Positions 7,758 to 37,610 of a DNA stretch of 64,000 nt are shown here, one piece after another; within the stretch, counting starts at the first letter, position 1, and each line of letters opens with the position of its first letter. The notes below the pieces were generated by a model that searched no databases, was not told the DNA's origin, and worked only from the letters and a program-made list of their open reading frames with translations. The DNA comes from Chloroflexota bacterium (lineage in GTDB: Bacteria; Chloroflexota; Limnocylindria; QHBO01), in contig JBBDRZ010000001.1 in the NCBI GenBank assembly GCA_040905185.1, forward strand, positions 115,254-179,253, in the 5' to 3' direction. A program made the position numbers and the translations under genes.

Positions 7758-8006
7758 CTAGTCGGCCGGACGGTGCTCCCGGTAGGCAGCCATGAGGCGC
7801 TCCGCATCGCCCGGCGCGAGGTAGCGCACGGCCTCGCGCATCGTCACGCCTGATGCCCGGTTCGTCCGAGGCGCCAGCCAGGTCGCCACCTCGGTCGGAC
7901 GGCGCTTGCCGATCGCGCGCCATGCAGATTCGATCTCAGACGCCACGGCAGCAGCATCGATGGCCACGCCGTCGAGTCTATCGTCCTGCCTTCGGTAGAC
8001 TGGCAC
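7758..8006 (-). CDS. hypothetical small protein (82 aa), uncertain
   Basis: ORF track only. Mixed codon usage. Its start abuts the longest-possible lipA start, so at most one of the two start assignments can be right. Confidence 0.25.
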   Translation of the reverse strand: MPVYRRQDDRLDGVAIDAAAVASEIESAWRAIGKRRPTEVATWLAPRTNRASGVTMREAVRYLAPGDAERLMAAYREHRPAD

Positions 8007-26756: not shown

Positions 26757-26832
26757 TGGCGCGCCGGGCAGGATTCGAACCCGCGGCCTGGTGGTCCGAA
26801 GCCACCCGCTCTATCCACTGAGCTACCGGCGC
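26757..26832 (-). tRNA. tRNA-Arg (anticodon TCG)
   Basis: Manual cloverleaf: acceptor GCGCCGG/CCGGCGC, D arm GCTC..GAGC, anticodon stem GGTGG/CCACC with loop CTTCGGA, T loop TTCGAAT, discriminator G plus encoded CCA. 76 nt. Confidence 0.8.
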
Positions 26833-26942
26833 ACGATTCACGCTCAAATAGAGCGTAAAAGTCGATGGAGGCTTGACTACAGCGCTGGGAGAGCGTAAAA
26901 CCTGACGCGTCTTCGGAAACCCGTCACGAGGCCTCTCCGGCG

Positions 26943-27887
26943 ATGCGATCTGCCTCCACCGCGCCCATCCTAACCCGCGGCGACCTGGCCGCCAACATCA
27001 CGAGCTACGCCCGCCATCTGCGGGCCGCCAACCTGACGCCGGCCACGCAGCGGACCTATCTGGCGTCTCTGGACCGGCTGGCCCGCTTCCTCGAGGAGCG
27101 CGGGATGCCGACCGACGTCGCCGCCATGCGCCGCGAGCACCTGGAGGCCTTCATCGAGGACCAGCTCGCCCGCTGGAAGCCGGCCACCGCCGCCAACCGC
27201 TACAGCGGCATCCGGCCGTTCTTCACCTGGCTCGTCGAGGAGGGCGAGCTGCGCGAGAGTCCGATGATCCACATGCGCAAGCCGCGCCTGCCCGAGCAGG
27301 CACCCCCGATCCCGTCGGACATCGCCGTCGAGCGCCTGCTGGCTACCTGTGAGGGACCCGGCCTCGCCGCCCGCCGCGACGCGGCTATCCTCCGGACGTT
27401 CCTCGCCACCGGGGCGCGTCTATCCGAGGTCGCCGGTCTGCGCTGGACGCCTGACCCGGCAACCAACGACGTCGACCTGGACGCTGGCGTCATCCGCATC
27501 GTTCGCGGCAAGGGCCAGCGCGAGCGGATCAGCTACCTCTCCGCGAAGGCAGTCAAGGCGATCGACCGCTACCTCCGGGTGCGCCGGACCCACGCCCACG
27601 CCGCATTGCCGTGGCTGTGGCTCGGCGAGAAGGGCCGGCTCACCGCTTCGGGCATCGTGCAGATGCTCAAGCGTCGCTCCCGCGATGCGGGCGTCACCGG
27701 GGTCCACCCGCACTCGTTCCGCCACTGGTACGCCAACGAGGCCCTATCGTCCGGGCTCCAGGAAGGCGAGATCATGGCCCTGGCCGGGTGGACGAGCCGG
27801 GAGATGCTGAGCCGCTACGCGAAGGCTGCCGAGCGCGAGCGGGCGGTCGCCGCCGCGCGACGGGTCAACGTCGGGGATCGTCTGTAA
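26943..27887 (+). CDS. tyrosine-type site-specific recombinase/integrase
   Basis: 314 aa. N-terminal SAM-like domain plus catalytic domain with ARLSEVAGLRW, HSFRHWYA and LSRYAKA (R..HxxR..Y). Confidence 0.85.
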   Translation: MRSASTAPILTRGDLAANITSYARHLRAANLTPATQRTYLASLDRLARFLEERGMPTDVAAMRREHLEAFIEDQLARWKPATAANRYSGIRPFFTWLVEEGELRESPMIHMRKPRLPEQAPPIPSDIAVERLLATCEGPGLAARRDAAILRTFLATGARLSEVAGLRWTPDPATNDVDLDAGVIRIVRGKGQRERISYLSAKAVKAIDRYLRVRRTHAHAALPWLWLGEKGRLTASGIVQMLKRRSRDAGVTGVHPHSFRHWYANEALSSGLQEGEIMALAGWTSREMLSRYAKAAERERAVAAARRVNVGDRL

Positions 27888-28002
27888 CTTCGTCGAGCAG
27901 CTCGGGGTGGCGCCCTCCCGGGAGCACGGACGACTCTGGAGCTCCCCAAAACCCCCAGACTCGTCGAGAACGCGAGAGGTCCAGGGGTGTAGTGTGGTTT
28001 CC

Positions 28003-29211
28003 ATGATTCAACTGCGAACGACTCCCCGCCGTTTCACCGGGGCGGTGGCTGGCGTGGCGTTGCTGCTGGCGGCCAGCGGATGCAGTGCCGCATCGCCATC
28101 GGCCATCTCGAGCAATGCGGCGAGTGCCATCCCTCACGAGTCGTCTTCAGCATCATCGACTCCGGTCGAGAGTACGGCGCCCGTGTGGACCACGACCGGG
28201 AACATGATCGAGGCCCCTGTCGCCAACACCGCGACGCTGCTGTCCGATGGCAGTGTGCTGGTGGCGGGCGGCATCACCATCAGGAGCGGCGAAAGGTTCC
28301 CGGCCTCCGCGCAGTTGTACGACCCCAGCAGCCGGTCCTGGAGCGCCACCGGAAACATGATCGAGTTTTCCCGCTCCGATTACACGGCCACGCTGCTGCG
28401 CGATGGCAAGGTGCTCGTGGCGGGCGGCTACCCCAGCCCACTGGCCTCCGCCGAGCTGTACGACCCCAGCACCGGGTCGTGGACCGCCACCGGCAGGCTG
28501 GTAACGGCCCGCGACCTTCATACGGCCACGCTGCTGCCCGATGGCAAGGTGCTCGTGACGGGCGGCATCGATAGCACCGTGTCCGTGGGCCACGCTGTCG
28601 CCGCCGCCGAGCTGTACGACCCAGCCAGCGGGACCTGGATTCCCACCGGGAACATGGTCCAAGCCCGCGTCTACGACACGGCCACGCTGCTGCTCGACGG
28701 CAGGGTGCTGGTGGCGGGCGGCAGCAGCAGTGGCACCCTCGGCGAGGCGCTGGCCTCCGCCGAGTTGTACGACCCGGCCAGTGGGACCTGGACCGCCAGC
28801 GGGAACATGAACGCGGGCCGGAGCGGTCACACGGCCACGCTCCTCCCCGACGGCACGGTGCTGGTGGTGGGCGGCAGCAACGGCAGCGGCCTACTGGCCC
28901 CTGCCGAGCTGTACGACCCAAGCAGCGGGTCCTGGACCGCCACCGGGGCGATGGTCGAGCCCCGCTACGGTCACACGGCCACGCTGCTGGCCAACAGCAA
29001 GGTACTGGTGGTGGGCGGCAGCGCCGGCCAGGACGCGCTGGCCTCCGCCGAGCTGTACGACCCGCTCAGCGGGTCGTGGACCGCCATCGGGAGCATGACC
29101 GCGGGCCGCAGCGGTCACACGGCCACGCTGCTGGCTGATGGCACGGTGCTGGTGGCGGGCGGGAGCACGCGGGTCGCGGCCGAGCTATACAACCCGGGCA
29201 GCGGGACCTGA
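28003..29211 (+). CDS. Kelch-repeat beta-propeller lipoprotein
   Basis: Start at ATG 28003 (MIQLRTTPRRFTGAVAGVALLLAASGC, lipobox-like). At least seven repeats of ELYDPxSGxWTxTGxMxxxRxxHTATLLxDGxVLVxGG. Confidence 0.75.
   Translation: MIQLRTTPRRFTGAVAGVALLLAASGCSAASPSAISSNAASAIPHESSSASSTPVESTAPVWTTTGNMIEAPVANTATLLSDGSVLVAGGITIRSGERFPASAQLYDPSSRSWSATGNMIEFSRSDYTATLLRDGKVLVAGGYPSPLASAELYDPSTGSWTATGRLVTARDLHTATLLPDGKVLVTGGIDSTVSVGHAVAAAELYDPASGTWIPTGNMVQARVYDTATLLLDGRVLVAGGSSSGTLGEALASAELYDPASGTWTASGNMNAGRSGHTATLLPDGTVLVVGGSNGSGLLAPAELYDPSSGSWTATGAMVEPRYGHTATLLANSKVLVVGGSAGQDALASAELYDPLSGSWTAIGSMTAGRSGHTATLLADGTVLVAGGSTRVAAELYNPGSGT
28440..29200 (+). repeat. intragenic tandem repeats of about 147 bp (Kelch blades; gccgagctgtacgaccc... 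recurring)
   Basis: gccgagctgtacgaccc recurs at about 28454, 28607, 28757, 28901, 29048 and 29177. Confidence 0.7.
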
Positions 29212-29380
29212 TATGCGGCTACCAGCCCAGAACTGACCAACTGGAGTCTGTACGGCAAGGTTCGCAATCGGTCTGACATGGGCTGCCGCGAATGACGACG
29301 CGCAGGAGCCTCCCGACAGCGGAAAACCCGACAGGTTTCGCTCGGCACCCCACGCTCGAGGCACAGCGCTCGGGGGTTTC

Positions 29381-29421
29381 TGGTCCGAAGCCACCCGCTC
29401 TATCCACTGAGCTACCGGCGC
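29381..29421 (-). repeat. partial tRNA-Arg copy (positions 1-41), putative att site
   Basis: Exact 41-bp match to 26792-26832. No T arm or acceptor 3' strand follows. Confidence 0.75.
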
Positions 29422-29446
29422 CGGGGCCGATTGTACCGGCGCCCGC

Positions 29447-29875
29447 TCACCACAGGGCCAGGCCGAACTCCTCGTCTAAGGTCCGAACCAGGTCCACGCC
29501 GAGCAGCTCGCGGATCTCGAACTCGGCCACGAAGACCTCGATCCCCCGCAGCAGGTGCCCGCCCACGCACGCCCCGTGCTCATCGGCGAAGGTGGCGTGC
29601 GCGTGGAGGAATGGCTTCCCATCGCGCAGGCTGACATTGCCGATAAAGCCCACGATCTCGTGGTGGGTGTCGGAGGACAGCTCGAGATACCTCAGGTCAC
29701 GTTGGTGGTAGTACGCGTATGCCGCCTTCCGAACCGCGCCGATGACGCTGACCCAGGCTGCCGACACGCCCCGCTCATCGCAGATGCGCTCGATCTCGGC
29801 GACGAGGTCGCTCCCCTTCTCCAATCGACCGATGAACGTCCGGCCCGCGGAGGCCTCCCAGGTGCGCTCGGTCAT
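29447..29875 (-). CDS. PPC (DUF296) domain-containing protein
   Basis: 142 aa. RTFIGRLEKGSDLVAEI...VIGAVRKAAYAYY...GFIGNVSLRDGKPFLHAHATFADEHGACVGGHLLRGIEVF matches the PPC/DUF296 pattern. Confidence 0.7.
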   Translation of the reverse strand: MTERTWEASAGRTFIGRLEKGSDLVAEIERICDERGVSAAWVSVIGAVRKAAYAYYHQRDLRYLELSSDTHHEIVGFIGNVSLRDGKPFLHAHATFADEHGACVGGHLLRGIEVFVAEFEIRELLGVDLVRTLDEEFGLALW

Positions 29876-29886
29876 CGGTCTGTCTC

Positions 29887-32421
29887 CTACTCGAAGTGCT
29901 TCAGGCTGGCCAGGACAGGCCGATTGCCGGCCAGCCGCGCCGGGTACAGCCCGGCCAGGCAGGCGACGCCCAATCCGAGCAGGACCACCGCGATCACCAG
30001 CGGCCAGGGGATGAGCAGCCCGGCGGCGAAATCCCGGGGAGCGAGGGTGACGAGCACGCCGGTGACGGCGACCCCGCCGACGGCGGCCACGATGCCGCCC
30101 ACCGTGCCCATGATCGCAGCCTCGGTCACGACCATGCCTTCGACCTGGCCAACGGTCATGCCGTGGGCCCGAAGCACGGCAATCTCGCGCGTCCGCTCGG
30201 CCACGCCCAGGCTCAGCGTGTTGACGATCCCTAACCCGCCGATGACGACGGCCAGCAGGGCCAGGGCGTCGAACAGCCCGAGCAGGCGATCCAATGACCG
30301 CGCCAGCTGCTCGGCCAGCACACCGGCCGTCAGCGCTTCACCGGCCAGTTGGGCAGCCTTTTCGGCCACCAACACCCCATAGGCTGCCTCCCCGATCGCG
30401 GGCTGGGGAACCATGGCCCACATGGTCGCCGTCTCGGCGCCGAACGTGGCCCGCGCATCTGCCAGGCTGATCAGCAACGCTCCCTCGCCGGATCGACCGG
30501 GGAGCGAGTAGGCGACCAGCCCGGCCACCGTCAGATCGGTGGCGGGGCCACCCGGGATGGCGAGGTGGATCAGATCGCCGGTGCGGAACCCCGTCTGGGT
30601 GGCGAATGACTCGGGGAGAAGAACCGCCCCGCCGCCGCGGAGGGCCTCGAACGCCGCGGCCCGGTCCGCCTCAACCACGATCAGGGCACCGGCGTCCTGC
30701 CAGACCGAAGGATCAATACCCGCGACGCCTGCCTCGCGATCACCCTCCGGAGTGGTGACCACTACGCCAAACTCGGGGACCGGGCTGGCCGAGAGCGTCC
30801 CAGGAGTGGCCTCGATCGTGTCCTGCAGGACGTCGATGGACGACGGAATGGTGAGCCGGATGGCGTGTCCCCCGGGGAGAATGGACTGGACCCAGCGCTC
30901 CGCCGTGCCCCGGGCCGAGGCGGCCGTCGTGCCCAAGGTGACCACCGCCGCCAGGGCCACCGTCAGGGCCGCCACGCTGAGCCCGGTCCGCGCCCGATGC
31001 CGGCCCAGGTTGGCGCGCCCCAGCAGCCCCTGGGCGCCGAACAGGCGCTCGAACGGCGCTCCGACCAGCCTCCCCAGCGGTTCCAGCATGAACGCGGTCG
31101 CGACCGCTCCGCCGATGAGCACCCCGACGGCCAGCAGGGTGGCCACGAGCGGTGGCGCGCCGCGTTCGAGTGGATAGAGGAGGAAACCGGCAGCCACCAC
31201 GGCCAGCTCGGCGGCGACGATCCAGCGCAGCCTGATCCAGAGGCTGCGCCCTGGTCGGTGCGTGGGACGAAGGGCCTCCAGAGGGCTGACCCGCGCGGCC
31301 TCCGCGGCCGGGACCCATGCCGCGAGCAGGGTGACGCCGAGCCCTAACCCGAACGAGAACGCGAGCACAGCCGGGCTCAGGGTCAGGTCCACCACCAACG
31401 CCGTTCGCGGGCCGGCAACGATGTTGACCAGGATCGCTCCAATGCCGATCCCGATCGGCAGCCCCAGCGCGGAACCCAGCAGCCCCAGCGCCAGCCCCTG
31501 GCGGATGACGAGGCCGCGCACCTGGCGGCCGGTGGTTCCTGCGGCTCGCAGCAGGCCGATCTCGCGGGTTCGCTCCGACAGGGTCATGGCCAAGGTGTTG
31601 GCGACCAGGAAGGCCCCGGCACTGAGCGCCACCAAACCGAGCAGGAAGGCGATGCCCGCGAACCCGGCTTGTGCGCGTGCGAAGGCGGCCTCCGCGTCGG
31701 CGACCGTCTCGACCACGAACGGCTCGGTCAGGTTCCGATCCAGGCCCGCTTCGACCTCGGCCATGCGGCCCTCGGCGACAGCCACGTCCACCGCCGTGAT
31801 GGGCGATGGGACCTCGAAGGCGGCATTCAGCGTGTCTCGGGCCACGAGCAGTACCGATCCCCCGGCCTGCGCCCCAAAGCCGCTGTTGGCCAGCAGGCCG
31901 ACGATGGTGAGGGGCGGGGTGTCGAGCCGCGCGCCGGTCAGCAGCAGCTCGTCGCCCAGGTCGAGGCGGTGATCGGCGGCCCACTGGGCGGCCACCAGGG
32001 CGCCGTTCGGGCGGTCGGCGTCCAGTGGCACGCCAGCCGTGAGGCTGGGACGGCCGAGGGCCGCCTCGGCCAACGGGTCGACGCCCACCGCGGAGAGCGT
32101 GAAGACCTGCTCATCGGGGCCCGGCTGGGTGGACAGGGTCAGGCGACGCTCGGCCAGCGGAGCGCTGATGGCGACCCCTGGGATCACTCGTATCGCCGCC
32201 ACGGATTCGGCGCGCAGTCCGTCGTGGTCGAAGGCTCGGATCCGCAGGTCCGCCTCGCCGTATAGATCCCGAGCGGCCTCGGCCACCGCCCGGGTGGCCG
32301 CATCGGCCGTCAGGAGGGTGCCGGCCACGAGCGCCACCCCGAGCGCGACGCCCATGCCGGTGAGCGCGGTTCGCGCCGGTCGGGCGGTCAGGCTCCTCCA
32401 GGCGATGGCGGACAGGCGCAT
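29887..32421 (-). CDS. MacB/FtsX-like ABC transporter permease (two FtsX domains)
   Basis: 844 aa. Two repeats of large extracytoplasmic domain plus 4-TM FtsX module. Adjacent to a MacB-like ATPase. Confidence 0.8.
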   Translation of the reverse strand: MRLSAIAWRSLTARPARTALTGMGVALGVALVAGTLLTADAATRAVAEAARDLYGEADLRIRAFDHDGLRAESVAAIRVIPGVAISAPLAERRLTLSTQPGPDEQVFTLSAVGVDPLAEAALGRPSLTAGVPLDADRPNGALVAAQWAADHRLDLGDELLLTGARLDTPPLTIVGLLANSGFGAQAGGSVLLVARDTLNAAFEVPSPITAVDVAVAEGRMAEVEAGLDRNLTEPFVVETVADAEAAFARAQAGFAGIAFLLGLVALSAGAFLVANTLAMTLSERTREIGLLRAAGTTGRQVRGLVIRQGLALGLLGSALGLPIGIGIGAILVNIVAGPRTALVVDLTLSPAVLAFSFGLGLGVTLLAAWVPAAEAARVSPLEALRPTHRPGRSLWIRLRWIVAAELAVVAAGFLLYPLERGAPPLVATLLAVGVLIGGAVATAFMLEPLGRLVGAPFERLFGAQGLLGRANLGRHRARTGLSVAALTVALAAVVTLGTTAASARGTAERWVQSILPGGHAIRLTIPSSIDVLQDTIEATPGTLSASPVPEFGVVVTTPEGDREAGVAGIDPSVWQDAGALIVVEADRAAAFEALRGGGAVLLPESFATQTGFRTGDLIHLAIPGGPATDLTVAGLVAYSLPGRSGEGALLISLADARATFGAETATMWAMVPQPAIGEAAYGVLVAEKAAQLAGEALTAGVLAEQLARSLDRLLGLFDALALLAVVIGGLGIVNTLSLGVAERTREIAVLRAHGMTVGQVEGMVVTEAAIMGTVGGIVAAVGGVAVTGVLVTLAPRDFAAGLLIPWPLVIAVVLLGLGVACLAGLYPARLAGNRPVLASLKHFE

Positions 32422-32443
32422 GCGCTCGGCGGCTCGGATCGGC

Positions 32444-33190
32444 TCAGAGGCCGAGCAGGGCCAGGCGGGTCAGGAGCTCACCCGGGTCGTGGTCGGGCCG
32501 GCGCCCCAGCTCGATCTGGTCCAGGATCTGCCCGTCGCGCACCACCAGCACGCGGTCCGCATACGCCGCCGCGCGAGCTTCGTGGGTCACCAGCACGATG
32601 GTCTGGCCCAGTTGCACGCAGGAGCGCCACAGCAGATCGAGGATCTCGCCGCCGCTCGTGTAATCCAGGTTGCCGGTGGGTTCGTCCGCCAGCAGGAGGG
32701 CCGGCTCGGTGGCCAGCGCGCGGGCCAGGGCCACCCGTTGCTGCTCCCCGGCCGATAGCTGATCGGGCGCGTGATCGGCCTTGCCTTCCAGGCCGACCAT
32801 GGCCAGCAGGTCATCCACGCGCTGGCGGCGCTCATGCACCGACTCTCCGCGGATCAGGAACGGGAGGGCCACGTTTTCGCGCACCGTCAGCAGCGGGATG
32901 AGGTTGAAGAACTGAAACACGAAACCGGTCTTGTCGCGCCGGGTCAGCGTCGCCTGCTCATCGTCGAGGGTGCTGATGTTCACGCCGTCAATGACGACCT
33001 GGCCCGCGGTGGGCTTGTCGAGGCCGCCGAGCAGGTGGAGGAGGGTGGACTTGCCCGATCCGGAGGCTCCCATGATGGCCACGAACTCTCCGCGCTCCAC
33101 CGCCAGGCTGACCCCGCGCAGGGCGTCGACCTGGCCATCCCCGACCGGGTAGCGCTTGACGAGGTCTTGGGCCTCCAGGATGACCGTCAT
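32444..33190 (-). CDS. ABC transporter ATP-binding protein (MacB/LolD-like)
   Basis: Walker A GASGSGKST, signature LSAGEQQRVALARAL, Walker B LLLADEPT. Confidence 0.85.
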   Translation of the reverse strand: MTVILEAQDLVKRYPVGDGQVDALRGVSLAVERGEFVAIMGASGSGKSTLLHLLGGLDKPTAGQVVIDGVNISTLDDEQATLTRRDKTGFVFQFFNLIPLLTVRENVALPFLIRGESVHERRQRVDDLLAMVGLEGKADHAPDQLSAGEQQRVALARALATEPALLLADEPTGNLDYTSGGEILDLLWRSCVQLGQTIVLVTHEARAAAYADRVLVVRDGQILDQIELGRRPDHDPGELLTRLALLGL

Positions 33191-33231
33191 CGGGCGAAAG
33201 GATACGGGGCCGGGGCGAGCCGGGGAGCGGG

Positions 33232-34155
33232 TCAGCCGAAGACGAACCCGATCAAGGCTCCCAGGAGTGTCTCGAATACGCCCTGGTCGGCGGGACCAGC
33301 AGCCTCGACCCGCAGACTGGCGACGGCCGGCGGCAGGATCGGCGCGCCGCGCGTGTCGAGGCCGGCCAAGGCCCGCTTCGGGACATTCGGCGCCCCCACG
33401 TGAACCAGGCTGCCGCTTCCGTCGAGGGGTTCAGCCGAAGTAGGGCGCACGGGGGCCGGCACGATGAGGGGAGGGAGCGTTGGCGCCGGGGCCGGCTGGT
33501 AGGCAACGCCGCCACCGCCACCGCCACCGCCACCGCCACCGCCCCCACCGCCCCCACCCCCTCCCCCACTGGGCGGCGGTGGAGGAGCCGAGCCCGCGGC
33601 AGCCATGAAGAGCTCGGTGTACACCCGCGGGCTGCGGAGCGATCCGAGGAACTGGACGTTGTCGGCAGCCCAGGCTCCGACTCCACCATGGGTCCAACTG
33701 GTACCCAGGATGTTGGCGCGGTGGCCAGGAGAGTTCATGAAGCCGTTGTGCGCGGCCACCGGGGAGTCGGCGTCCGAGTAGCCGTTGTTCCAGGCGATGT
33801 TCTCGCCGCCCAGGGTGTAGCTCAGCCCGTTCTGGTCATACCAGTGGTAGACCTGGTAGCCGGTGCCCAGGATGGTGTGGCTGAAATAGTTGCGCTCGAT
33901 CATGTCCTGGCTTCGCCAACGAGCAATTGATACCAGGGTGCCGTGCTGGACCAGCACGTTGAGCCCGTTGTTGGCGCGAGCGCCGTTCAGCAGCTGCCAC
34001 AGGGTCGCCTCCGCGCTCGCCTGGTCCCAGGCACTGGCTGTCGCCGGACCCGACCAGACCAGGAGCGCAGCGGCCATCAGGGCCGTGCCCGCAAGCCCTG
34101 TAGCGCGGAGGAGGACGTTCGGTTGACGCCGAATCGAGACAGGCGCTGAGCGCAT
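33232..34155 (-). CDS. secreted CAP (SCP/PR-1, YkwD-like) domain protein with poly-glycine tract and Pro-rich C-terminus
   Basis: Signal peptide. CAP motifs NYFSHT, GENIAW, MNSPGHRANIL. A run of 22 Gly follows. Confidence 0.7.
   Translation of the reverse strand: MRSAPVSIRRQPNVLLRATGLAGTALMAAALLVWSGPATASAWDQASAEATLWQLLNGARANNGLNVLVQHGTLVSIARWRSQDMIERNYFSHTILGTGYQVYHWYDQNGLSYTLGGENIAWNNGYSDADSPVAAHNGFMNSPGHRANILGTSWTHGGVGAWAADNVQFLGSLRSPRVYTELFMAAAGSAPPPPPSGGGGGGGGGGGGGGGGGGGGVAYQPAPAPTLPPLIVPAPVRPTSAEPLDGSGSLVHVGAPNVPKRALAGLDTRGAPILPPAVASLRVEAAGPADQGVFETLLGALIGFVFG
33509..33570. repeat. GGN/GCCACC trinucleotide simple-sequence repeat encoding poly-Gly
   Basis: Plus strand (gccacc)n then gcccccacc units at 33509-33570. 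Confidence 0.7.
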
Positions 34156-34311
34156 GCGATAGCACCCCTGGATCGGTCCGCCTTCGTGACGGACGTACCA
34201 GAAGGCTACGGTGGCCCAGGGCCACGGTCAGTAGCGCGGTCGTCCCGGCTCGGGCCGGGACCATCAGGTCTCTAGGCCCTGACTGTCGCCGGGCCGTGGT
34301 CGGGGAGTGCG

Positions 34312-34677
34312 TCAGGTGGGGCGCACGACCACGGTTCCGGCGATCTTGTCGTGCCAACCCTGCTTGCGGCGGTCGAACGCGATCCAGATCACGCCCAGGA
34401 ACAGGATCACGATGCTGATGATCAGCCCGACGTAGCGGAGCAGCGAGCGGACGATGTCGACCTTGCCGCCATCGGCAGCCAGCACGATCCGCATGTTGAA
34501 CGGAATCATCCCCGGGCTCTGGCCACGCCAGGTCCAGAAGCCGACGAAATAGACGAGGTCGATGAGGAGGCCGATGGCGTTGGTGGTGTAGTTGAAGACA
34601 AACCCGTCGTTGTCGAAGGTCACAGCGCTGCCGCCTCCGATGAGCGGGGCAACCGCGGCGGTGAGCACCCCGAGCAC
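34312..34677 (-). CDS. RDD family membrane protein
   Basis: 121 aa, GTG start. DRRKQGWHDKIAGTVVV RDD motif. Two TM helices. Confidence 0.6.
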   Translation of the reverse strand: MLGVLTAAVAPLIGGGSAVTFDNDGFVFNYTTNAIGLLIDLVYFVGFWTWRGQSPGMIPFNMRIVLAADGGKVDIVRSLLRYVGLIISIVILFLGVIWIAFDRRKQGWHDKIAGTVVVRPT

Positions 34678-34694
34678 GATGGCGTCCAGGATGA

Positions 34695-34980
34695 AGGCAA
34701 CGAGGCGGACCCAGAAGCCGGCGTATCGGAGGCCCTGGGCGGGCCGCCAGGAATGTCTCCCGCGCCTTCGCTGAGGTACTCCAGCGGGCCGGGCTACCGA
34801 GGATCAGGTTTCACGATCTCCGACACTCGGCGGCGACGCTCATGCTGGCTCAGGGGGTCGATCCACGGACAATCATGGAGACGTTGGGGCACTCGCAGAT
34901 CGGTACAACGCTGAACATCTACGCCCACGTTCTGCCCGCGATGCAGCGGGACGCGGCGGATCGGATCGGGCCGCCCTGTT
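34695..34980 (+). pseudogene. 3' remnant of a tyrosine integrase gene (catalytic box II only)
   Basis: Frame translation gives ...AFAEVLQRAGLPRIRFHDLRHSAATLMLAQGVDPRTIMETLGHSQIGTTLNIYAHVLPAMQRDAADRIG with the HxLRH and catalytic Tyr boxes. No N-terminal or core domain upstream (a stop sits at 34692, and the minus-strand RDD gene lies beyond it). Confidence 0.55.
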
Positions 34981-35000
34981 CGGGGGTTAGGACGGGGCTA

Positions 35001-35582
35001 TCAGTAGCGGAGCAGCGTCATCACCGCACCGACGCGGTTGAACATGAGCAGCCCGATCGGCAAGGTGATGATGATCACGCACAGTAACCACGCGACGCCG
35101 AGGTAAATGGCTCCCACCCACCAGCCGACGAAGACGAACCAAAGGGCACGTGCCCACAGTGGGTACTGCTCGACGGTCCCGCCGGTGACGTACGTGACCC
35201 CGTCCCGGATCTCAATCGTGTGCGAGTCCGTCCGCGGCCTCAGGGTGAGAATTACGGGCAGTCGGTTGAAGATCATGAAACCAAGCGGCAGGCCGATGAT
35301 GATGACGCACAGAAAGTACGCAGCGACGATCGCGAGTCCGCTTAGCCACCAGCCGACAAAGATGAACCAAATCGTGCGCACAAAGAACCCCGGACCGGTG
35401 GACCGCTGAATGATGACAACGTTTTGGCTGACATTGACGGTCGGTGGAGCGGTCGGACTGACCGGTGGCGCAGGCGATGGTGAGGTCGGAACGGTGAGCG
35501 GGTCCGGCATCGCTCCGGGCAGCGTCACGTCGGGCGGCTGGATTCCACCCTGGTCCTCCGGGACCCTAGGTTGGTCGGACAT
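35001..35582 (-). CDS. YccF-like (DUF307) inner membrane protein, duplicated domain
   Basis: Two copies of FIFVGWWLSGLAIVAAYFLCVIIIGLPLGFMIFNRLP-like modules. Pro-rich N-terminus. Start proposed at ATG 35582. Confidence 0.6.
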   Translation of the reverse strand: MSDQPRVPEDQGGIQPPDVTLPGAMPDPLTVPTSPSPAPPVSPTAPPTVNVSQNVVIIQRSTGPGFFVRTIWFIFVGWWLSGLAIVAAYFLCVIIIGLPLGFMIFNRLPVILTLRPRTDSHTIEIRDGVTYVTGGTVEQYPLWARALWFVFVGWWVGAIYLGVAWLLCVIIITLPIGLLMFNRVGAVMTLLRY

Positions 35583-35759
35583 GGCACCTGCCCTCCCCAC
35601 CACCAAGCGCAGGCGCCGACCCATTCAGGGCCGGCCCGCGCAGGCTCGAGTTTAGCCACTCCACCGCCCGCAAATCCCTGTGGCTGTCAATTTGGCTGTC
35701 AACCGACCGAATGTTCCCGGCGTGGGCACCTACCGCGAGCAATTTCGTGCTCAAAATGG

Positions 35760-35836
35760 TGGGGTGGCCTACGGGGCTTGAACCCGTAACCTTCGGAGCC
35801 ACAATCCGATGCTCTGCCAGTTGAGCTAAGGCCACC
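35760..35836 (-). tRNA. tRNA-His (anticodon GTG) with encoded G-1
   Basis: Manual fold: G-1, acceptor GTGGCCT/AGGCCAC, anticodon stem TCGGA/TCCGA with loop TTGTGGC, T arm ACGGG-TTCAAGC-CCCGT, discriminator C plus CCA. Confidence 0.85.
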
Positions 35837-35872: not shown

Positions 35873-36664
35873 TCAGCCGAGGCGGGTGAGGATCTCCTCC
35901 CGGTCAAAGGCCCACGAGCCGATGATCAGCAGGGCCCCGATCAGGCCCACCACCACCAGGTCGCCGACGAGGACCTGGCTCATGCTGAAGGTCGCCTGCC
36001 CTCCCAGGAACTGCGCCACGGCGACCGCGATGATGGGCAGGACCACGAACGCGCCGAACTGCTGGGCGGTCCGGGGGTCGCCGACCCGCGAGCTGACGAT
36101 GACGCCCAGCAGGACCGACAGCACGCAGATCAGCGGGACCAGGGTGGCCATGGCCACCATCCATTGCGGGCTGAACACCATCCGCAGCAGGCGCGGGTCG
36201 GCGATCGCCCCGTTGATGAGGCCGTAGGCTACCCACACCGCCCAGGTGGCGAGGACGGCCGGCAGGGCAGCCGCGATGGTCTTGCCGGCGAGCAGCTCGG
36301 AGACCTCGATCGGGGTCGCGAGCTGCGGCTCCAGGGATCGCGCCTGCCGCTCGCCGATGACCGACTGCGAGGCAATCGCGATGGGCACCATGGCCGGGAT
36401 GAGCAGGAAGTAGGCCATGAAGTTGGTGACGATGAAGCCCTGGGCCGCCAGCTTGGGCGGCAGGTCGGGGAAGGCGGCGAGCATGACCGCAATCTGGCCC
36501 AGCTGGTTCACATCCAGGTCGTTGACCTCGATGAAGCCCACGATGGCGATCGGAATAGCGGCGAAGATGACGGCCGGCGCGGCGACGGCAGCCAGCAACA
36601 GCCGGTTGGACCCGATCTCGCGCCACTCCTTGCCGAAGACGGTGGCCACCAGCCTAAGCCGCAC
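35873..36664 (-). CDS. ABC-2 family transporter permease
   Basis: 263 aa with about six hydrophobic helices. Overlaps the upstream ATPase gene by 11 nt. Confidence 0.75.
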   Translation of the reverse strand: MRLRLVATVFGKEWREIGSNRLLLAAVAAPAVIFAAIPIAIVGFIEVNDLDVNQLGQIAVMLAAFPDLPPKLAAQGFIVTNFMAYFLLIPAMVPIAIASQSVIGERQARSLEPQLATPIEVSELLAGKTIAAALPAVLATWAVWVAYGLINGAIADPRLLRMVFSPQWMVAMATLVPLICVLSVLLGVIVSSRVGDPRTAQQFGAFVVLPIIAVAVAQFLGGQATFSMSQVLVGDLVVVGLIGALLIIGSWAFDREEILTRLG

Positions 36665-37610
36665 GGGCGCCCTCCGGGTCGCGTTCGCCGCGCTCGCCGA
36701 CCAGCTCCAGGTAGACCTGCTCCAGGCTGGCGACGTCCTCGGCCACCGCCAGCACCCGAGCCCCGCGCGTCACGAGCTCACGCACCAGCTCCGGGGTGTC
36801 GCGCCGGGGCTCGGCCAGCTCCACCCACAGGTCGCCGCCCTCGGCCCGCGCGTTGCGCACGAAGGGCAGTGAACCGAGCGTGGCGGCCAGCGCCGACGCG
36901 TCGACCAGGCCACCGTCCAGCGCGACCCGTGTAGCCGCAGCCCGACCCCGGCGGCGCAGCTCGGCGGGCGTCCCCTCGGCCAGCAACCGCCCGTTCAGGA
37001 TCCCGATCCGATCACACACGCGCTCCGCCTCGTCCAGGTTGTGGGTGCACAGGACGATCGAGCGGCCCTCGTCCCGGAGCGTGGCGACCAGCTCGCGAAT
37101 AGACTTGGCCGCCTCGGGGTCGAGTGCGCTGGTCGGCTCGTCGAGGTAGATCACCCGCGGCTCGTGGAGCAGGGCCCGGGCGATCGCCACTCGTTGGCGC
37201 ATGCCCTTCGAGTAGCCGCTGACCCGCCGGTCGGCGGCGTCGGTCAAGCCGACCACGGCCAGGTAGCGGTCCACCGCCGCCCGCAGGGCGGCATCGGTCA
37301 GTCCGTACAGGCGCCCGTAGTAGGTCAGGTTCTGTCTCGCGGTCAGCCGGTCGTGCAGCCCCGGGCTCTCGGTCAGGATCCCGGTCAGGGATCGGATCTG
37401 CGGGTTGTCGCGCCCGAGCTCGAGGTCGACCACCCGCACTCTGCCGGCGCTGGGGGCGATCAACCCGGCCAGGATCCGGACCGTGGTCGTCTTGCCCGCC
37501 CCGTTGGGGCCCAACAGCCCGTAGATCTGTCCCGCGCGCACGGTGAAGGACACGTCCCGCAGCGCGGTGACGATCCCGAATCGTCGCTCCAGGCCTTCGA
37601 CGGCAATCAA
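36654..37610 (-). CDS. ABC transporter ATP-binding protein (ABC-2/DrrA-like)
   Basis: Walker A GPNGAGKTTT, signature SGYSKGMRQRVAIARAL, Walker B IYLDEPTS. Confidence 0.85.
   Translation of the reverse strand: MIAVEGLERRFGIVTALRDVSFTVRAGQIYGLLGPNGAGKTTTVRILAGLIAPSAGRVRVVDLELGRDNPQIRSLTGILTESPGLHDRLTARQNLTYYGRLYGLTDAALRAAVDRYLAVVGLTDAADRRVSGYSKGMRQRVAIARALLHEPRVIYLDEPTSALDPEAAKSIRELVATLRDEGRSIVLCTHNLDEAERVCDRIGILNGRLLAEGTPAELRRRGRAAATRVALDGGLVDASALAATLGSLPFVRNARAEGGDLWVELAEPRRDTPELVRELVTRGARVLAVAEDVASLEQVYLELVGERGERDPEGARAA

Follow-up and report, generated by a model that had tools for sequence, protein, structure and literature searches.

A conserved Limnocylindria gene module pairing a secreted CAP-domain protein with a YbbAP-like type VII ABC transporter

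The characterised type VII ABC transporters are each defined by a partner outside the membrane (EnvC, LolA, MacA or TesA), and the function of YbbAP was unlocked in 2025 by finding such a partner. A locus of a Limnocylindria bacterium (phylum Chloroflexota) raises the question of whether a CAP-domain protein may be the partner of a transporter of this type. The window analysed, a stretch of 64,000 nucleotides, carries four minus-strand open reading frames at 29447-34155, with limits exactly as in the initial annotation, which code for a CAP/YkwD-type protein, an ABC ATPase, a permease with two FtsX domains and a PCC/DUF296 protein (Table 1). The gaps between them, in this order, are of 41, 22 and 11 nt. 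Bacterial CAP/YkwD and stand-alone PCC/DUF296 proteins are widespread but of obscure function, and for each of its three components, CAP protein, transporter and PCC protein, the strictly conserved module provides a concrete hypothesis that can be tested. A literature search found no paper combining CAP domain, FtsX and ABC transporter, and no system of CAP domain with FtsX or of YkwD with an ABC transporter, in agreement with the earlier statement that the combination is not a described system.

Table 1. Coordinates of the four genes and of the features within and between them.
Feature	Position	Strand	Basis
CAP/YkwD-type gene, secreted or tethered product, 307 aa	33232..34155	-	ORF; PF00188
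N-terminal signal sequence, aa 1-41	34033..34155	-	hydropathy segment 14-32; AF2 helix 14-34; family-wide conservation
CAP domain, aa 45-186	33598..34023	-	AF2 pLDDT ~90; invariant residues; Foldseek
Disordered low-complexity tether, aa 187-292	33280..33597	-	AF2 pLDDT <60, no secondary structure
Run of 20 Gly codons, aa 197-216	33508..33567	-	counted; GGN/GGCGGT repeat
C-terminal hydrophobic helix with GxxxG, at the extreme C-terminus	33235..33279	-	conservation; AF2 helix 294-306
-10-like hexamer TATCCT, candidate leaderless promoter	33199..33204	-	8 nt upstream of ATPase ATG
ABC ATPase gene, LolD/MacB/FtsE-like, 248 aa	32444..33190	-	PF00005; Walker/signature/H-loop residues
Fused two-FtsX type VII permease gene, 844 aa	29887..32421	-	Pfam; hydropathy; AF2; Foldseek
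Cytoplasmic PCC/DUF296 gene, 142 aa	29447..29875	-	PF03479; PDB 2dt4; conservation

Conservation of the gene order

The loci surveyed derive from species-representative genomes, nearly all of them Limnocylindria/Chloroflexota MAGs, and the hosts of the module are uncultured soil and freshwater MAGs. The ATPase is the next gene at every CAP locus (72/72), and all four genes occur in order at 50 of the 51 loci with enough sequence. Since this order recurs at CAP identities as low as 45%, between flanking genes that vary (27 of 63 loci share the commonest flank group), it is not due to chance. A reciprocal search starting from the permease recovers the same four-gene association (3/3 loci), and three unrelated CAP genes elsewhere, inspected as a control, have no such ABC/FtsX/PCC neighbours. 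Among the best 80-120 matches listed per search, all come from Limnocylindria. The neighbourhood is kept across this whole class, which decisively answers the concern, voiced in the initial annotation, that the genes might co-occur nowhere else.

Further candidate members were considered and rejected. The neighbouring Kelch lipoprotein gene is encoded on the other strand and forms part of a 2.6 kb integrase element with 41-nt tRNA-Arg repeats at its ends; the upstream RDD gene is confined to 10 loci, all from the subclade of the window. An apparent PCC-permease fusion, a 783-aa 'FtsX+PCC' product in locus L001, lies on a contig whose ATPase gene is also split in two, which suggests indel errors; the best 120 PCC homologues are all stand-alone proteins of ~142 aa. 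Assignment to a defence system was likewise rejected, as the PADLOC match reflects generic ABC-ATPase similarity only, and Rfam gave no match over 29000-34700 at E<=1.

Domain architecture of the encoded proteins

The domain calls made previously (CAP, MacB-like ATPase, two-FtsX permease and PPC/DUF296) are borne out by Pfam; among the NCBIfam models the cluster proteins are YkwD-like and LolD/MacB-like, with all scores below the equivalog cut-offs. The first protein bears the CAP/SCP signature (PF00188, E=7.6e-8, 33.7 bits against a cut-off of 21.1) and resembles YkwD without being a member by the NCBI threshold (TIGR02909, 90.5 bits against 171); it has more than 1,700 homologues. Its signal sequence consists of an Arg-rich n-region, a hydrophobic helix (14-34) and A-S-A ahead of W42, where the AxA rule places a putative cleavage site. 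The CAP domain, whose invariant residues include E118-N119-I120 and H145-R146, is modelled by AF2 as a CAP fold, an alpha-beta-alpha sandwich, with 4ifa (E=6e-10), 4d53 and 4h0a as the nearest structures in Foldseek and PR-1 and GAPR-1 as further matches.

The tether that follows contains Pro5-Ser-Gly20 as well as short motifs of weak conservation (P238; R282 in 'LRVEA'), and in 75 homologues the post-CAP length is steady at 115-153 aa while its composition varies. A 22-residue poly-Gly hinge, encoded by a repeat that could vary in length by slippage without a frameshift, had been described here. The GGN repeat is indeed at this site (33509-33569 by TRF, period 6, 10.2 copies), the uninterrupted run being of 20 residues and not 22, and the predicted polymorphism is seen: close relatives at ~90% nucleotide identity code for 20, 17, 19 and 16 Gly, with in-frame indels of 6 and 12 nt. 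Across homologues the run comprises 0-30 Gly and forms a non-conserved linker; the poly-Gly tract is just one form that a variable low-complexity tether takes, and no conserved functional element.

The terminal helix (G-V-F-E-T-L-L-G-A-L-I-G-F-V-F-G) is conserved: the tail is found in all 75 loci-derived homologues, with G292 invariant and E295, G299 and F304 conserved in at least 90%, and it ends in hydrophobic residues or Gly. With 13-16 residues and neither a basic cluster nor a known motif, it does not correspond to a sorting signal of the LPXTG, PEP-CTERM or GlyGly-CTERM type. A phmmer search for the C-terminal 91 aa on other domains, among 1.84 billion representative proteins, returned 5 hits, all of them fragments or low-complexity.

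The ATPase (PF00005 ABC_tran, E=7e-37) scores highest in NCBIfam against LolD (234 bits), the MacB NBD (225 bits) and FtsE (208 bits), all below cut-off; its Walker A, signature, Walker B and H-loop residues are at least 97% conserved in 70 sequences, and a C-terminal extension (aa 228-248) is conserved as well. The permease combines two MacB_PCD (PF12704) and two FtsX (PF02687) domains. Ten hydrophobic segments predict 10 TM helices, and the AF2 model (pLDDT 80.6, pTM 0.71) places extracytoplasmic MacB_PCD domains at about aa 55-240 and 515-698. The best PDB fold match of this model is E. coli YbbP (9ge6_A, E=4.2e-24), on which it superposes over the full length (TM 0.71/0.75, 868 aligned columns); LolC/E, MacB, BceB and HrtB are also matched. 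Judged by domain content, ATPase motifs and the predicted fold, permease and ATPase conform to the type VII (MacB/FtsX-fold) class, which is marked by a 4-helix TM bundle of FtsX type whose first two helices enclose a large extracytoplasmic domain, and by a LolD/MacB/FtsE-class ATPase with intact catalytic motifs.

The PCC protein is recognised by PF03479 (E=2.4e-29, 102.5 bits against a cut-off of 25) and by PDB 2dt4 (E=1e-26). H71, E73, H91, H93 and H107 are listed as its invariant residues, the four His being at least 97% conserved. The GDSL/TesA family has no Pfam match among seven proteins scanned, namely those of the four cluster genes and three neighbours.

Transcription of the cluster

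The genes had been termed co-operonic. Their short gaps and common strand fit this description, as does the lack of a terminator-like site in the three intergenic gaps; the conserved internal promoter-like hexamer before the ATPase does not. TAGACT or TATCCT stands 6-10 nt before the ATPase start in 74 of 75 related loci, as an isolated island of conservation without a -35 element, and a sigma-70 consensus scan found no promoter. The pattern TAnnnT-N6-9-start is enriched 3-4x outside the cluster. Because of this -10-like hexamer, CAP and ATPase-permease-PCC are probably transcribed as two adjacent units and not strictly as one operon: the first would comprise CAP, with a Shine-Dalgarno-led start, and the second would be a leaderless ATPase-permease-PCC message. 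Within the latter the genes are tightly spaced or overlapping; the permease-PCC gap of the window compares with a median of 17 nt across loci, and overlaps of -4 nt occur at some.

The CAP protein as a possible transporter partner

Type VII ABC systems are usually paired with a periplasmic partner that sets their function, and TesA, whose gene adjoins those of YbbAP, was initially deduced to be its partner from evidence of this kind (PMC12646458). The partner role proposed for the CAP protein in the initial annotation is consistent with known type VII systems (PMC12646458). The cargo role proposed as its alternative, in the sense of export across the membrane, is unlikely, since the protein brings an N-terminal signal sequence of its own and no substrate is conducted across the bilayer by MacB-fold transporters. 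Chloroflexota are generally regarded as a monoderm phylum, for which 'periplasmic' is loose wording. The Limnocylindria module may represent a YbbAP-like mechanotransmission complex with the tethered CAP protein as its dedicated extracytoplasmic partner, a functional assignment to which we give about an even chance.

In such a complex the LolD-like ATPase, presumably in two copies, would serve one fused 10-TM permease, the two extracytoplasmic domains of which may be of the Porter/Sabre type. The CAP protein would be composed of a Sec-exported YkwD-type domain, ~100 disordered residues and the GxxxG helix, by which it may be anchored to the membrane or to the permease. The outer permease domains would move as ATP is bound and hydrolysed, whereby a hydrophobic envelope molecule taken from the outer leaflet could be passed to the CAP domain; alternatively, this motion might switch the access of the CAP domain to its target. 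Type VII systems do pull hydrophobic moieties from the outer leaflet (PMC12646458), and a CAP-domain mutant of Rhodobacter secretes lipid (PMC5442454). The PCC protein, a small cytoplasmic His-triad protein, would be produced in step with the permease and may act as a regulator or accessory subunit.

The pairing of CAP protein and transporter suggests a new kind of envelope partner for MacB/FtsX-type machines, and that the 'extract and hand over' design of YbbAP works with varied partners, even in a phylum generally regarded as monoderm. A broader generalisation is tentative and, in our estimate, rather less probable: CAP/YkwD proteins may be an unrecognised class of type VII ABC partner that docks via a GxxxG helix on a flexible tether, with PCC as a regulatory subunit. 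If true, it would give two widespread bacterial domains their first mechanistic context.

One rival holds that the genes are independent neighbours, an ordinary MacB/YknYZ/BceAB-type pump for efflux, resistance or detoxification beside an unrelated secreted CAP protein, joined by shared regulation or inherited synteny. The separate promoter-like element before the ATPase accords with this, as do the GC-rich hairpins that follow the CAP stop at many loci and the origin of all loci from one class, in which common descent adds to the pattern. Mutual information between tail and permease, moreover, does not exceed the tail-ATPase or tail-PCC controls (45 sequence sets, phylogeny-dominated). We nevertheless consider this explanation unlikely in view of the adjacency and full order kept while flanking genes turn over, the reciprocal association seen from the permease, and a conserved CAP tail of membrane- or protein-docking character that has no other obvious purpose.

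The same tail could instead mark the CAP protein as a substrate, the 'cargo' of the initial annotation, which is exported by Sec and then retained in the membrane through the C-terminal helix until the transporter extracts the helix and releases the protein, as LolCDE does with lipoproteins. The conservation of the hydrophobic helix, the outer-leaflet extraction known for type VII systems (PMC12646458) and the presence of LolE and LolC among the structural and sequence relatives would agree with this route. It is quite improbable all the same, as the helix, with its conserved Glu, is too short to span a bilayer, the protein's own signal sequence makes an ABC exporter needless for membrane crossing, and the module encodes no LolA-equivalent carrier. 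Control of the wall in the manner of FtsEX, where the CAP protein would have a wall-modifying activity that the transporter switches on, by analogy with the action of FtsEX on EnvC, PcsB, CwlO or RipC, appears very improbable. An extracytoplasmic partner gene is next door, the ATPase resembles FtsE, and the permease has weak FtsX_Gpos and FtsX_actino hits, yet all of these scores miss their cut-offs (208 against 264.85, 35.6 against 225 and 20 against 250 bits, respectively). The fused 10-TM permease with two outer domains differs from the 4-TM FtsX, the CAP protein has neither a coiled coil (AF2) nor a known hydrolase domain (Pfam), and YkwD proteins have no established wall-hydrolase activity.

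The partner reading finds its closest counterpart in YbbAP-TesA of E. coli (PMC12646458, PDB 9GE6-9GE8), which shares with the module a separate ATPase and one fused 10-TM permease, large outer domains between TM1-2 and TM7-8, and a secreted-partner gene directly beside the transporter genes. Sequence orthology with YbbP was not found: identity in the structural alignment is 17%, phmmer against the 9GE6-8 chains gave no hit at E<=10, and the permease scores 18.2 bits against a cut-off of 999 for the NCBIfam YbbP model NF041854. Where YbbAP has a GDSL esterase, the module would have as its partner a CAP/YkwD domain, borne on a long disordered tether and followed by a terminal helix; the gene of this partner is co-directional and not divergent, a PCC gene is added, and the hosts belong to a phylum usually considered monoderm.

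FtsEX and LolCDE-LolA share with the module the MacB/FtsX fold and a LolD/FtsE-like ATPase. They work by transmitting force to an extracytoplasmic partner and not by moving a substrate through a pore, a principle that the module would have in common with them. Their permeases, however, are 4-TM proteins that act as homo- or heterodimers and work with coiled-coil activators or with a lipoprotein chaperone, and all equivalog models remain below cut-off for the proteins described here. A MacAB-TolC tripartite pump was rejected, as the ATPase is a separate gene and not an NBD fused to the permease; the module has no MacA/HlyD-type adaptor in the window or in the gene tables of loci L001-L003 and L091-L093.

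Other bacterial SCP/CAP proteins (the B. subtilis YkwD family, B. anthracis 4IFA, Borrelia BB0689 4D53, S. aureus SAV1118 4H0A and the CAP domain of Enterococcus PrgA) are similar in their CAP fold, YkwD-type motifs and extracytoplasmic location. Unlike these, the Limnocylindria family adds a conserved tether and a GxxxG C-terminal helix, and its genes always accompany a type VII ABC transporter, whereas the three unrelated CAP genes inspected do not. For the PCC protein, a distant relative is LmiA of EHEC, a DUF296/PCC virulence regulator of O-island 119 whose His triad is a proposed zinc site (PMC7667037). Both are stand-alone PCC/DUF296 proteins with a conserved His triad, and LmiA lies in a small island with annotated ABC ATP-binding genes (PMC7667037), whereas the PCC gene described here is tightly coupled to that of an FtsX-type permease.

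Composition and conservation of the gene set

The module consists of four consecutive minus-strand ORFs, whose limits are exactly those reported in the initial annotation (see table). In Pfam, the CAP protein matches PF00188 (33.7 bits, cut-off 21.1), the ATPase carries an ABC_tran domain, the permease combines two MacB_PCD with two FtsX domains, and the smallest protein bears a PCC/DUF296 domain (102.5 bits). The leading NCBIfam models are LolD, MacB-NBD, YbbA and FtsE for the ATPase and LolC/E, ADOP, MacB and YbbP for the permease, all scoring below their curated cut-offs, as does the YkwD model for the CAP protein (90.5 bits).

Features of the module and its surroundings in the window
Feature	Position (nt)	Strand	Remark
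CAP/YkwD-type protein gene	33232-34155	minus	ORF, 307 aa
ABC ATPase gene	32444-33190	minus	ORF, 248 aa
FtsX-type permease gene	29887-32421	minus	ORF, 844 aa
PCC/DUF296 protein gene	29447-29875	minus	ORF, 142 aa
TATCCT hexamer	33199-33204	minus	8 nt before ATPase ATG
tRNA-Arg(TCG)	26757-26832	minus	5' half is one copy of 41-nt repeat
Tyrosine integrase	26943-27887		in mini-island
Kelch-repeat lipoprotein	27907-29211		in mini-island
RDD-family gene	34312-34677		between CAP gene and tRNA-His
Integrase C-terminal fragment	34725-35087	plus	between CAP gene and tRNA-His
YccF-like ORF	35001-35624		between CAP gene and tRNA-His
tRNA-His	35760-35835
Hydrophobic ORF, 263 aa	35873-36664	minus	just beyond tRNA-His
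Separate ABC ATPase ORF	36654-37610	minus	overlaps hydrophobic ORF

One genome per GTDB species was scanned with an alignment of the CAP family, and the window's ATPase, permease and PCC proteins were run by tblastn against the best 80 CAP loci listed, nearly all from Limnocylindria/Chloroflexota MAGs (CAP identity 45%-92%); almost every named homologue belongs to 'Candidatus Limnocylindria'. More than 1,700 homologues of the CAP protein and more than 1,000 of the permease are present in databases. Among these matches, the ATPase adjoins the CAP gene in 72/72 loci with at least 300 nt downstream, and the complete order CAP-ATPase-permease-PCC, on one strand, occurs in 50 of the 51 loci whose downstream sequence amounts to 4.3 kb or more. 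The sole exception, locus L063, has the first three genes and no PCC gene within 1.4 kb downstream, while a 1.1-kb insert separates permease from PCC in locus L021. In three further loci, found by way of permease homologues, the CAP gene again lies upstream, and three unrelated CAP genes from actinobacterial plasmids are without such neighbours. An absence of the combination elsewhere, for which the initial annotation had allowed, is therefore clearly contradicted. Chloroflexota MAG GCA_040879065.1 encodes a protein with 100% identity to the permease, on a contig that has the same four genes.

The genes are closely spaced, with gaps of 41, 22 and 11 nt in the window and medians of 52, 6 and 17 nt across loci (CAP-ATPase, ATPase-permease and permease-PCC, respectively), the last junction being a 4-nt overlap in some loci. 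Conservation of the flanking genes is limited to subclades: the commonest group occurs upstream in 27/63 loci, and no downstream group reaches 10 loci. The gene arrangement is real and strongly non-random, and what needs correction in the initial annotation is its glycine count and its operon claim.

The CAP protein, the transporter and their possible relationship

The CAP protein was analyzed using alignments of 26 and 117 homologues and an AlphaFold model. Its N-terminus is Arg-rich and continues into a hydrophobic helix (aa 14-34) with an A-S-A site after it; together these probably form a Sec-type signal sequence. Residues 45-186 are confidently predicted to adopt the CAP fold, and the solved structures closest to it (4ifa, BB0689 and SAV1118) are of bacterial SCP proteins whose function is unknown; a disordered region (aa 187-292) and a terminal helix (aa 294-306) follow. 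The uninterrupted glycine run of the window comprises 20 residues (aa 197-216, nt 33508-33567) and not the 22 originally counted; TRF places the GGN repeat at 33509-33569. The anticipated in-frame length polymorphism is real, since relatives of ~90% nucleotide identity have 17, 19 and 16 Gly, with in-frame indels of 6 and 12 nt in the Pro/Gly repeat region. The linker sequence is not conserved: the longest Gly run varies from 0 to 30 per homologue, and (PA)n, (TPKP)n or Pro/Ser/Thr tracts serve as alternative linkers. The post-CAP length is constant within 115-153 aa. The Gly tract is a spacer and not a specific element.

The C-terminal 15 residues are conserved throughout, as (R/Q)G-(L/V)-F-E-T-x-L-G-S-L-L-G-F-x-L, with a GxxxG motif. 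A known sorting signal was ruled out for this tail, because it is too short to span the membrane and lacks a basic end; it is more likely to be an in-plane anchor or a helix packing on another helix.

Hydropathy identifies ten hydrophobic segments in the permease, and the first and the seventh are each followed by a large loop. Its AlphaFold model (pLDDT 80.6, pTM 0.71) best matches E. coli YbbP (9ge6_A; E=4e-24, TM 0.71/0.75, full length, 17% identity), ahead of LolE/C, MacB, BceB and HrtB. A sequence search with the permease did not detect YbbP at all, and the modelled likeness is one of architecture and not of orthology. In the YbbAP system, the secreted partner TesA is encoded beside the transporter, and its authors consider that a periplasmic partner is typical of type VII transporters and establishes their function (PMC12646458); YbbAP-TesA was itself the subject of an in-silico pull-down. 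Besides all catalytic motifs, the ATPase has a conserved C-terminal extension of 20 residues that lies past the canonical ABC domain (aa 228-248, window 32444-32509; L-G-R-R-x-x-H-x4-L-x2-R-L-x2-L-G-L). Speculatively, this extension could offer a docking site to a partner such as the PCC protein.

The reading of the module as a YbbAP-TesA-like type VII ABC complex, with a tethered CAP-domain protein as its partner, has the best support of those considered and stands for us at an even balance. Passage of the CAP protein through the transporter as exported cargo, which the initial annotation had entertained, is unlikely. The conserved tail could also belong to a protein which the transporter releases from the membrane, a reading we consider quite improbable. 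An ABC system acting as a pump functionally unrelated to the CAP protein is somewhat less doubtful, though still unlikely; against it stands the ATPase gene's position beside the CAP gene at every locus with sufficient downstream sequence, and for it the probable membership of the two genes in separately initiated units (see below). FtsE is among the models matched by the ATPase, below its cut-off; an FtsEX-like cell-wall function of transporter and CAP protein together seems very improbable. For the complex with a tethered partner, hand-over of lipid to the CAP protein is an attractive speculation, because lipid is secreted by a CAP-domain mutant of Rhodobacter (PMC5442454). In the literature library searched, there was no paper combining 'CAP domain', 'FtsX' and 'ABC transporter', and no described system for YkwD with an ABC transporter.

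The PCC protein has no hydrophobic segment by hydropathy, is highly conserved, with 57-93% identity to the window's protein across loci, and retains H71, E73, H91, H93 and H107. Among solved structures, two archaeal proteins whose function is unknown (2dt4 and 2h6l) are its closest relatives. The only functional precedent found is EHEC LmiA, a DUF296 regulator whose His triad has been proposed as a zinc-binding site; some other genes of its island carry the annotation of ABC ATP-binding proteins (PMC7667037). The PCC protein may be a regulator or a transporter subunit.

Transcriptional organization

A generic scan found no sigma-70 consensus promoter, and the three intergenic gaps contain nothing resembling a terminator. 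The ATPase start is preceded in 74/75 loci by TAGACT (53 loci) or TATCCT (21 loci), 6-10 and mostly 7-8 nt upstream. This hexamer forms an isolated island of conservation in an otherwise variable CAP-ATPase spacer, lacks a -35 element, and precedes neither the permease nor the PCC start in the 75-locus set. Outside the cluster, in related genomes, a long ORF starts 6-9 nt after TAnnnT in 10.6% of cases, versus about 3% for control patterns and other spacings. This enrichment, 3-4x in roughly 1 Mb of sequence from related loci (L004-L083), is a sequence signature of putative -10-only promoters giving leaderless mRNAs. The window also has TAGACT at 7996 (+), 7980 (-), 11076 (+), 17843 (-) and 58388 (-), 7-9 nt before an ATG/GTG opening ORFs of 69-344 aa; sites 7980 and 7996 form a divergent pair. 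The pattern suggests frequent use of leaderless transcripts in Limnocylindria.

At the CAP gene, a Shine-Dalgarno-like sequence is usual (59/79 loci), and a GC-rich hairpin lies directly 3' of its stop codon in many spacers, although it is weak in the window. The CAP gene and ATPase-permease-PCC are probably adjacent units, separately initiated, and transcriptional read-through from the former into the latter may occur. The conserved promoter-like hexamer thereby weakens the description of the genes as co-operonic, leaving their proposed functional linkage unaffected. It bears on separate transcription of the genes, the second condition under which the initial annotation would have had its idea refuted.

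tRNA genes and inserted elements

In relatives, tRNA-His lies only ~0.7 kb upstream of the CAP gene, and just 10 loci, all in the window's subclade, have an RDD gene upstream of CAP. Two tRNA genes, tRNA-His and tRNA-Arg, therefore bracket the module; the second is the insertion site of an integrase element, and near the first lies a fragment of an integrase. A perfect 41-nt direct repeat (26792-26832 and 29381-29421, the second copy 25 nt after the PCC stop) brackets a 2.6-kb mini-island, the element spanning 26833-29421. Three related loci (L007, L014 and L027) have an intact tRNA-Arg within ~50 nt after PCC, and the element was therefore inserted into the tRNA, in the anticodon-loop region. 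Within its Kelch gene, seven direct repeats of ~144-156 nt (28186-29210) correspond to beta-propeller blades and are ordinary; homologues of the Kelch protein occur downstream of PCC, in varying orientation, at loci L022, L024, L031, L043 and L049. Beyond tRNA-His, the two overlapping ORFs look, by sequence alone, like an ABC-2-type transporter pair, which appears unrelated to the module.
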